Below the pieces are notes generated by a model. That model saw only the letters and a list, made by a program, of their open reading frames with translations. It ran no database searches and was not told the origin of the DNA. Below, piece after piece: positions 23,676-25,522 of a stretch of 64,000 nucleotides of DNA (positions within the stretch are counted from its first letter, which is position 1; every line of letters starts with the position of its first letter). Origin of the DNA: Sulfolobales archaeon HS-7. GTDB lineage: Archaea; Thermoproteota; Thermoprotei_A; Sulfolobales; Sulfolobaceae. The DNA is taken from contig AP024596.1 of NCBI GenBank assembly GCA_019704295.1, positions 864,001 to 928,000 on the forward strand, in the 5' to 3' direction. Made by a program: the position numbers and the translations under genes.

Positions 23676-24521
23676 TTAAAGAAGCTTCTTTATGTCAAAG
23701 GGCGTTTGAGCCACACTTATATCGGCTTCCTTAAACGCTGTTACCTTGCTCTGGAAACTTCCCATTCCCATATAAACTACAGCACCAGCATGACCCATTC
23801 TTTTTTCCCGAGGCGCAGTGAGACCAGCTATGTAAGCAACTATTTTCTTCTTAATCTTACCTCTCTTAACTAGAGACGCAAGTCGTTCCTCGGACGTACC
23901 TCCAATTTCTCCTATTACTACTATTTTTTCGGTTTCAGGATCTTCCTCAAATGCTAATGCAGCATCGACCAGATCTGTACCTATTATAGGATCTCCTCCT
24001 ACTCCTATTACCGTAGACTGACCTATATGTTTCAAGTCGTTCGCTACCTCATAAGTTAATGTACCAGATCTGGAAGCTATACCTATTTTCCCTTTTTTGA
24101 ATGCCCTTGGTGGCATTATTCCTAAACTTATTTGTTCTGGTACCATAATTCCAGGACAGTTCGGTCCGATAATACGTGCACCTTTATTCTTTGCATATTT
24201 AACAAATCTCATTGTATCAAGTACAGGAATATGTTCTGTTATTACAACTACTAAATTAATCCCGGAATCAAGCGCTTCGTAAACCGCATCAGCAGCAAAT
24301 TTTCCAGGTACAAACACAATGCTTGCCTCTATGTTATGTTCCTTTACTGCATCTGCAACGTTGTCGTACACTGGGATACCTTCTATCTCGGTGCCGCCTT
24401 TTCCTGGTGTAACGCCAGCAACTACTTTAGTACCGTAATTTCGCATTTGCTTTGCATGAAAAGAACCTTCTTTACCTGTTATACCTTGAACTAAAACTTT
24501 TGTATCTTTATTTACGAACGT
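23676..24521 (-). CDS. sucD: Succinyl-CoA synthetase alpha subunit (proposed ACG start at 24521; first ATG is at 24446)
   Basis: [23 protein letters not shown]; frame open upstream through [18 protein letters not shown] to ACG, with a TGA three codons further upstream. Confidence 0.93.
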
Positions 24522-25522
24522 ATCGCATCACCTATTGCCTGAAGAGGATCTTCATATGCCTTTATCCCATTTTCTATAAGTATTTTCCTTCCTTCCTCTT
24601 CATTAGTTCCTACTAATCTAACAAATATAGGTTTCCTAACCTCCTTGTAAGCCTCAACTATACCTCGGGCTACTTCATCACACCGGGTAATACCCCCAAA
24701 TATATTTACAACTAGTTTCTTCACTTTCTCATTACTCGCTACCCTGATTATACTCTCTTTTACATGTTCTTTATTAGCTCCTCCTCCTACATCGAGGAAG
24801 TCCGCAGGTTCTCCTCCTGCCAATTTCACCAGATCCATCGTTGACATAGTCAAACCAGCACCATTCCCTATAATTCCAACATATCCTTCTAATTCAACAT
24901 ATCCATCTGATACATTCTCTCTATTGAATTCGCGGAGAATGTCAGGATGTCTATATAAAGCGTTATCTTCCAATATTACCTTAGAATCTAGAGCAACAGG
25001 TCCCCTATCCGTAATAGCCAAGGGATTTATCTCTACTAGTTCTGCCTCGTAAGTTAGGAGAAGATTGTATATACCTTTTACTATTTTATCTAGGCCATTT
25101 ACGCCGAGGTACTTCTCTATCATAGTTACATCGTATGGTCTTACACCTCGTTCTTCAGGAATCTCAAATATTTTTACATTAGTCGCCGACTCTACGTCTA
25201 TTCCTCCTTCAGGGGAGGCAATAATTATGGGCTCTTTCTTATCCCTATCTATCATAGCTGAGATATATACTTCCTTACTATGTGGGATGAATTCCTCGAC
25301 AAGGAAGAGATTATAACCCATTTTCTTAAACTCGCTTATTGTTGTTGCTACATTCTCAGTTACTTTAACGAGGCCTCTTTTCCCTCTCCCTCCCTCTAAC
25401 AGTTGGACTTTTACGACAGCCTTTCCCTCCCATTGTAATGGTTCGCTAATTACCTTACCGTTGGGTATCGGTATTTCCGCTTTAGAAAACAGCCTTTTCC
25501 CTTCATATTCGTATAGTTTCAT
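24512..25522 (-). CDS. sucC: Succinyl-CoA synthetase beta subunit
   Basis: [37 protein letters not shown]. Confidence 0.97.

Follow-up and report, generated by a model that had tools for sequence, protein, structure and literature searches.

Probable translation initiation of sucD at an ACG codon nested in the end of sucC in Sulfolobaceae

The window analyzed here, a stretch of 64,000 nucleotides from contig AP024596.1 of Sulfolobales archaeon HS-7, contains the genes for the two subunits of succinyl-CoA synthetase, with sucC (beta subunit) directly upstream of sucD (alpha subunit) and overlapping it. Comparative sequence data indicate that the sucD gene of Sulfolobaceae is probably translated from an ACG codon (24519 to 24521 of the window, minus strand), under the guidance of a Shine-Dalgarno sequence and in a manner coupled to the termination of sucC translation. 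An ACG start nested in the end of sucC had been proposed in a preliminary description of this DNA, made from the sequence alone, and it is now supported by the presence of the codon in 47 of 47 genomes from 14 genera of the family. The codon is marked out by its invariance, by the CGN bias of the Arg codon of sucC that overlaps with it, and by unedited RNA in a relative.

The sucC gene is an open reading frame (ORF) for 336 amino acid residues (24512 to 25522, minus strand) with the Pfam domains ATP-grasp_2 and Ligase_CoA, and its C-terminal tail (...AIGDAIRS) is typical of the family. Its final six codons overlap with the ribosome-binding site and the start of sucD. Its TAA stop codon (24512 to 24514, minus strand) begins 7 nt past the A of the ACG codon. 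As proposed and translated here, sucD (23676 to 24521, minus strand) consists of 281 codons from the ACG codon plus a stop codon. Its frame is closed upstream by a TGA at 24530-24528, which is followed by TGC GAT ACG TTC GTA AAT. The TTC codon after ACG (24516 to 24518, minus strand) encodes Phe at a conserved hydrophobic position of the SucD N-terminus, and the GTA codon after that (Val; 24513 to 24515, minus strand) corresponds to the start position annotated in databases for relatives. From the TGA to the first in-frame ATG (24444 to 24446, minus strand), there is no ATG, GTG, or TTG. This ATG lies 25 codons past the ACG codon, and it is the start of the 256-residue product called by gene finders, which lacks the nucleotide-binding loop QGITGKEG. 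There is also an out-of-frame ATG, which opens a mini-ORF of six codons plus a stop codon (24508 to 24528, minus strand) and has one base in common with the Shine-Dalgarno sequence. This ATG is found in 45 of the 47 genomes, with a GTG in the other two, and is a by-product of the Asp-Ala codons of sucC.

When read from the ACG codon, the predicted protein has both hallmarks of SucD, namely a CoA-binding Rossmann domain and a CoA-ligase domain encoded next to sucC. The CoA_binding profile (PF02629) is matched in full from ACG (1-97 of 97 positions, E = 6.8e-31) but only from 26 to 97 when the protein is read from the ATG at 24446, so that a start at this ATG loses the first 25 positions of the domain. 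The glycine-rich loop QGITGKEG is present in the reading from ACG. The CoA-ligase domain (PF00549) is also matched, and the phosphohistidine motif MGHAGA is present. Read from ACG, SucD shares 64-73% identity with its orthologues in the family, and the alignments begin at residue 1. Its best solved relative is 2yv2 (E = 5.5e-113), and residue 2 of the ACG reading is aligned with residue 3 of the Thermus SucD chains 1oi7 and 3ufx.

The Shine-Dalgarno sequence AGGTGAT (24527 to 24533, minus strand) lies within the Gly-Asp codons of sucC. All of its 7 nt are complementary to the 3′ end of the 16S rRNA of the same genome (GGATCACCTCA), and its GGTGA core ends 6 nt before the ACG codon. A complementarity of at least 7 nt was found in only 35 of the 2112 ORFs of at least 100 residues in this genome (the top 1.7%). 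Among ORFs of this size, the most frequent distance from GGTGA to the start codon is 6 nt (35 genes), followed by 4 nt (28) and 7 nt (17), while a distance of 12 nt was found for three genes. Another GGTGA, 6 nt, and ATG arrangement in the window, at 59383-59370 (minus strand), starts a Toprim protein of 403 residues, consistent with DnaG. Across the family, the motif is AGGTGA in 35 genomes and TGAGGGA or TGGGGGA in 12 genomes, in the latter with the register shifted by about one position. These two versions of the Shine-Dalgarno sequence have been kept in register inside different SucC residues (Gly-Asp or Arg-Asp). The preliminary description had noted the first ATG downstream of the CoA-binding motif, the TGA-closed frame devoid of ATG, GTG, and TTG over the 25 codons between ACG and that ATG, the GGTGA at 24532-24528 that precedes the ACG codon by 6 nt, the likeness of this spacing to that of dnaG in the window, and the out-of-frame mini-ORF from 24528. 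All of these observations hold, and the 6-nt spacing proved to be the genome-wide mode.

Is the ACG codon a trait of the whole family? All sucC/sucD junctions were extracted from the 47 genomes, the window genome included, and were numbered with the A of ACG as +1. Among the relatives are Sulfolobus acidocaldarius, Saccharolobus islandicus, S. solfataricus, and S. shibatae, as well as members of Sulfurisphaera, Stygiolobus, Acidianus, Metallosphaera, Sulfodiicoccus, and Sulfuracidifex. A sucD gene is present in every genome, each match begins at the ACG codon, and the ACG codon is invariant. No relative among the 47 genomes has an ATG, GTG, or TTG at this position. A chance arrangement and an assembly error at the ACG codon are ruled out by this conservation. 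A scan of metagenomes in which the three bases of the ACG codon were left free gave 20 matches, six of them in sucD and 14 by chance; all six sucD copies have ACG, and no natural ATG variant was found among them. The preliminary description had suggested aligning the junction across relatives, and the alignment gave a conserved ACG codon along with inconsistent or truncated SucD starts in databases. The outcome that it had named as refuting, that is, relatives with ATG, GTG, or TTG in place of the ACG, did not occur in the 47 genomes, and the RNA of a relative reads ACG.

The bases around the ACG codon behave differently on its two sides. Bases -3 and -2 take all four values across the 47 junctions, and the triplet just before ACG occurs in 11 versions, which stand for nine amino acids (Asp, Ile, Gly, Thr, Ser, Pro, Ala, Phe, and Leu). 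The codon after ACG encodes Leu in 37 genomes, Phe in seven, Ile in two, and Tyr in one, residues that Thermus and the outgroups have here too. A C or T at position +4 keeps Leu or Phe in the sucD frame in 45 of the 47 genomes, although this position is merely the wobble base of an Arg codon of sucC. Position +6 and the wobble positions further downstream vary freely. The sucC stop codon begins at +5 in 13 genomes and at +8 in 34, and all of the 13 genomes with the stop codon at +5 keep Leu as the codon after ACG. Since the codon before ACG varies while the following codon stays Leu or Phe, the sucD frame appears to be selected from the ACG codon onward and not before it. On these sequence data, the boundary of the constraint on the sucD frame sits at the ACG codon. 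For the second codon after ACG, the counts are 28 ATA, 14 GTG, three GTA, one ATT, and one ATC; in 33 of the 47 genomes, there is no ATG, GTG, or TTG from the ACG through this second codon. Taken together, the absence of a canonical start upstream of the domain-essential residues, the conservation of the codon, and a spacing that works for other genes are what would be expected for a near-cognate start codon.

Outside the family, sucD genes start in the usual way. In other families of the same order, an ordinary ATG lies two codons further upstream, behind a Shine-Dalgarno sequence in a short spacer. In a control set of 67 sucD loci from distant bacteria and archaea, 66 have a canonical start (ATG, GTG, or TTG) at the homologous place. 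The single exception is a locus on an uncultured archaeon contig (L031:1480-1500; CAYFZR010000067.1), in which GGAGG and 7 nt are followed by ATA and then by codons for Ser-Ile-Leu-Ala-Asp-Lys. As far as its sequence tells, this is probably an ATA start of sucD in another archaeal lineage.

The overlap with sucC may explain why the codon has stayed ACG. Seen from sucC, the ACG spans two codons: its A is the wobble position of a codon for Leu, Ile, or Val (Ala in one genome) and is nevertheless invariant, and its C and G open an Arg codon. This Arg of the SucC tail is conserved; the SucC of an outgroup (L026) has a homologous tail, ...ALRS, and its homologous Arg codon is AGA where the two genes do not overlap. 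The Arg codon overlapping with ACG is CGN in 47 of 47 genomes, including all 23 genomes of the subset used for control columns. In these 23 genomes, six other invariant Arg columns of SucC and SucD have CGN in 0, 3, 2, 0, 3, and 1 genomes, and sucC and sucD together have 595 AGR codons versus 70 CGN codons. In the window genome as a whole, 86% of the Arg codons are AGR and 14% are CGN. The use of CGN at the overlapping Arg despite this preference for AGR indicates that the C of ACG is selected for something beyond SucC. An ATG at this site would change the SucC Arg to Cys, Trp, or a stop codon, and ACG would be the best near-cognate codon compatible with Arg. This compatibility is proposed as the reason why the codon has not changed since the family ancestor.

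RNA data were available for the S. acidocaldarius locus (L012, with the ACG codon at 1602-1604). In stranded raw reads covering the junction at about 25x, no C-to-T change at L012:1603, no indel, and no joint is listed. In contigs from RNA libraries of three other studies, one of them at a word depth of about 3000, both genes agree with the DNA at every base. No stable structure is predicted for the junction RNA of the window, which is less structured than its shuffled versions (z = +1.23). At L012:1688, inside the S. acidocaldarius sucD, three of 27 raw RNA reads of one run have T where the DNA has C, which could be noise or a strain variant. Furthermore, in the raw-read run, the depth over L012:1250-2050 is about 5-15 at the end of sucC and about 17-30 from about 50 nt before the ACG codon onward, a two- to three-fold step up. 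No pile-up of read starts was seen at this step in the one raw-read run. An internal sucD promoter or differential stability is possible behind it.

How would the ACG codon be used? The strong AGGTGAT in the last codons of sucC would place the near-cognate ACG codon in the P site, where the initiator Met-tRNA would read it. Since the sucC stop codon lies only 4-7 nt further on, ribosomes finishing sucC would most likely restart at the ACG codon, SucD synthesis following SucC synthesis. The closeness of stop and start that is typical of termination-reinitiation coupling is found in 47 of 47 junctions, and such coupling is putative here; it might also tune the ratio of alpha to beta subunits, as the preliminary description had suggested. 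The arrangement would have arisen once, in the ancestor of Sulfolobaceae, when the intergenic Shine-Dalgarno sequence and ATG of the sister families were lost and the conserved Leu-Arg-Ser tail of SucC became the site of the start. A wider picture can be drawn, tentatively but not implausibly. ACG would have been a stable initiation codon since the family ancestor, with ATG forbidden by the SucC Arg; it would be used mainly for reinitiation after sucC, keeping SucD strictly in step with SucC; the crenarchaeal machinery would accept an ACG codon held in the P site by a strong Shine-Dalgarno sequence; and new ACG starts would keep arising, as in the ABC ATPase gene and rpoG discussed below.

Several points weigh against initiation at the ACG codon. 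Given the kinship of the 47 genomes, a single ancestral state could simply have been passed on, although the neighboring silent sites are saturated. The SucC Arg is itself conserved and helps to fix the G of the codon, together with a C or A before it. A canonical GTG lies two codons past the ACG codon in 14 of the 47 genomes and could serve as the start there. In E. coli, ACG works poorly as a start codon. The case for ACG initiation is built from comparative data only. Moreover, the aIF1 of S. solfataricus is reported to discriminate against non-canonical start codons, as cited in the reviews PMC6237735 and PMC8211752.

The preliminary description did not consider the main rival of the ACG start, in which translation really begins at the second codon after ACG. 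The ACG and the codon next to it would then be untranslated, and ACG would be kept only through SucC. This codon is GTG in 14 and ATA in 28 of the 47 genomes (GTA in the window), it is where most database proteins begin (MNK... or VNR...), those of RefSeq included, and in relatives it overlaps with the sucC stop codon as GTGA or ATAA, a 4-nt overlap of stop and start that is a classical arrangement for coupling. However, it is GTA in three genomes of three genera (the window genome and one species each of genera g9 and g12) and ATT or ATC in two more, and it switches among ATA, GTG, and GTA within g9 and g12 as an internal Val/Ile codon would. It is never ATG, though ATGA would suit both genes. 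Its distance from GGTGA is 12 nt, which occurs at background frequency in the window genome. Moreover, a start at this codon leaves unexplained both the CGN in 47 of 47 genomes for the SucC Arg and the Leu or Phe of the intervening codon, which is kept even where the SucC tail is shortened. Thus, this start is unlikely.

Two forms of frameshifting were weighed. Ribosomes might start at the ATG of the mini-ORF (24528; replaced by GTG in two genomes) and, before the end of the third codon, move by +1 into the sucD frame. None of the 47 genomes lacks an ATG or GTG in the frame of the mini-ORF, and a shift after the third codon would give an N-terminus of M-x-x-Leu and a protein of the length of outgroup SucD. 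But this ATG overlaps with the Shine-Dalgarno sequence by one base or follows it 1 nt later, so that it could not be placed in the P site by that sequence; the presence of the ATG is accounted for by the Asp-Ala codons of sucC, while the well-spaced Shine-Dalgarno sequence is left unexplained. Locus L116 has CAC rather than TAC as the third codon, and the second codon varies, so that there is no conserved re-pairing or shift site. Neither a rare, hungry, or stop codon nor an RNA structure (the z score given above) is present at the site. Alternatively, a -1 frameshift near the end of sucC might produce a SucC-SucD fusion with no separate initiation. The reading frames permit such a shift over the six-codon stretch from the TGA to the sucC stop codon, and related enzymes such as ATP-citrate lyase include fusions of the beta and alpha parts. 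However, as the preliminary description had already remarked for the window, there is no slippery heptamer (X XXY YYZ), and this is true of all 47 junctions; there is no downstream structure either. The window for the shift is only about 15 nt, and the conserved and correctly spaced Shine-Dalgarno sequence is again left without explanation. The search of protein records of the family covered proteins of 154-492 residues, a range that does not test for such fusions. With neither a conserved slippery or shift site nor a stimulator in the sequences, a programmed frameshift in either direction seems very improbable.

The remaining alternatives concern the RNA and the integrity of the gene. C-to-U editing, which is established for ACG-to-AUG changes in chloroplasts and plant mitochondria, might turn the codon into AUG in the mRNA, or transcriptional slippage might repair the frame. 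The S. acidocaldarius raw reads at about 25x contain neither a C-to-T change nor an indel, though a few per cent of edited molecules would still be possible at this depth, and the contigs of three studies match the DNA; I regard this as the least probable of all the explanations. It is hardly more credible that sucD is decaying or N-terminally truncated in the window organism, with only the 256-residue product from the ATG at 24446 or none at all. Gene callers do give 256 residues (P0001), and the genome is only 91% complete by its marker genes though it is a single contig. However, the 25 codons upstream of this ATG are intact and encode the nucleotide-binding loop, with 64-73% identity to orthologues from residue 1, and both the Shine-Dalgarno sequence and the ACG codon are intact as in the 46 relatives.

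The host genome (G000) is a single contig of 2.15 Mb with 39.6% G+C, and it is the sole representative of its genus among the genomes compared. Its low completeness score might be due to missed starts at non-canonical codons or to the divergence of the lineage. Are there other ACG starts in this genome? I scanned it for in-frame codons located 4-8 nt behind a GGTGA, in an open stretch upstream of the first canonical start. The commonest codons were ATT (seven), ATA (five), and ACG (five). Two of the ACG candidates, both outside the window, have the geometry of sucD, that is, GG-TGA, two codons, and ACG. One is a gene for an ABC-transporter ATPase (G000:C1:1562403-1562405, minus strand; L138:1078-1080, minus strand). 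It has a Shine-Dalgarno sequence of 8 nt (TGAGGTGA) at a distance of 6 nt, its first canonical start lies 56 codons past the ACG codon and beyond Walker A, and in the three family orthologues that were found, the codon exactly aligned with the ACG is GTG or TTG. The other is rpoG for RNA polymerase subunit G/Rpo8 (PF16992; G000:C1:839633-839635, plus strand; L135:301-303). Its first ATG is 25 codons past the ACG codon and inside the domain, and its relatives have an ATG, TTG, or GTG around that place, with a TATA-like box close by. These lineage-specific candidate sites suggest, at the level of sequence, that ACG may be usable more generally in the window organism. In a gene for a PDCD5-like double-stranded DNA-binding protein (PF01984; G000:C1:1800987, plus strand; L136:301), ACG is the first codon after a stop codon and lies 5 nt behind AGGTGA. 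The start of this gene is ambiguous; a TTG lies 10 codons downstream of the ACG at profile position 6. A fourth genome-wide ACG match (G000:C1:2054915) was rejected, as it looks non-coding.

The annotation of sucD is wrong and inconsistent in public records. At least five different starts were found in the Sulfolobaceae records P0001-P0120: the second codon after ACG as GTG or ATA; an ATT one codon before ACG (MTLVN...); a later ATA, TTG, or GTG; the first ATG (256-260 residues); and an upstream ATG (307 residues). The 307-residue form with the upstream extension is from Candidatus Acidianus copahuensis. The starts other than the second codon after ACG are chosen by pipelines where that codon cannot be used. 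Recombinant constructs may be affected: an enzyme made from one of the annotated starts misses one or two conserved residues at its N-terminus or the nucleotide-binding loop as a whole. A full-text literature search, whose coverage did not extend to subscription journals, yielded no paper that deals with the N-terminus of sucD or with ACG starts in Sulfolobales. The searched part of the proteome supplement of PMC10653856 contains no rows for SucC or SucD. The family in which this central-metabolism gene carries a fixed ACG codon counts S. acidocaldarius, S. islandicus, and S. solfataricus among its members, and the use of the codon is directly testable there. The locus is also a clean example of how overlapping reading frames can lock a non-canonical signal in place.

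Near-cognate initiation has been hinted at for archaea. In the ribosome profiling of Haloferax volcanii, about 30% of the putative alternative initiation sites were near-cognate, and they were set aside as possible false positives (PMC7261190). These sites resemble the sucD ACG codon in being a published hint of archaeal near-cognate initiation; unlike for sucD, no conserved, gene-defining case is described among them, and ACG is absent from the main text of that paper (PMC7261190). In the literature searched, no published case of an archaeal ACG start was found, and ACG is not among the starts that the prokaryotic translation table permits.

In eukaryotes and their viruses, ACG initiation is textbook knowledge, as exemplified by VP2 of adeno-associated virus and the C′ protein of Sendai virus. 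There, as proposed for sucD, the initiator Met-tRNA reads the codon with one mismatch at the middle base, and factors of the e/aIF1, 1A, and 2 types are common to archaea and eukaryotes. However, the eukaryotic start is selected by scanning and Kozak context and serves an alternative isoform, whereas the sucD start would be selected by Shine-Dalgarno pairing with 16S rRNA within an operon and would be the sole start of an essential-type metabolic enzyme. In bacteria, Shine-Dalgarno sequences direct initiation at rare starts such as the AUU codons of E. coli infC and pcnB. These cases and the ATA, ATT, ATC, and CTG starts of translation table 11 share with sucD a weak codon that stands behind a ribosome-binding site and is conserved across relatives. 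In contrast, ACG is not a start codon of table 11, so that no pipeline can call it, and no autoregulatory role is evident for sucD. Termination-reinitiation coupling is known for overlapping gene pairs in Haloferax and E. coli. As in those pairs, the stop and start of sucC/sucD lie within 10 nt, with the Shine-Dalgarno sequence inside the upstream gene; the differences are that the restart codon of sucD would be non-canonical, that it lies 4-7 nt upstream of the stop codon, and that coupling is putative here. Thus, near-cognate initiation is known in kind, and the value of the present case lies in its fixation across a family with laboratory model organisms and in the correction of a widespread mis-annotation.

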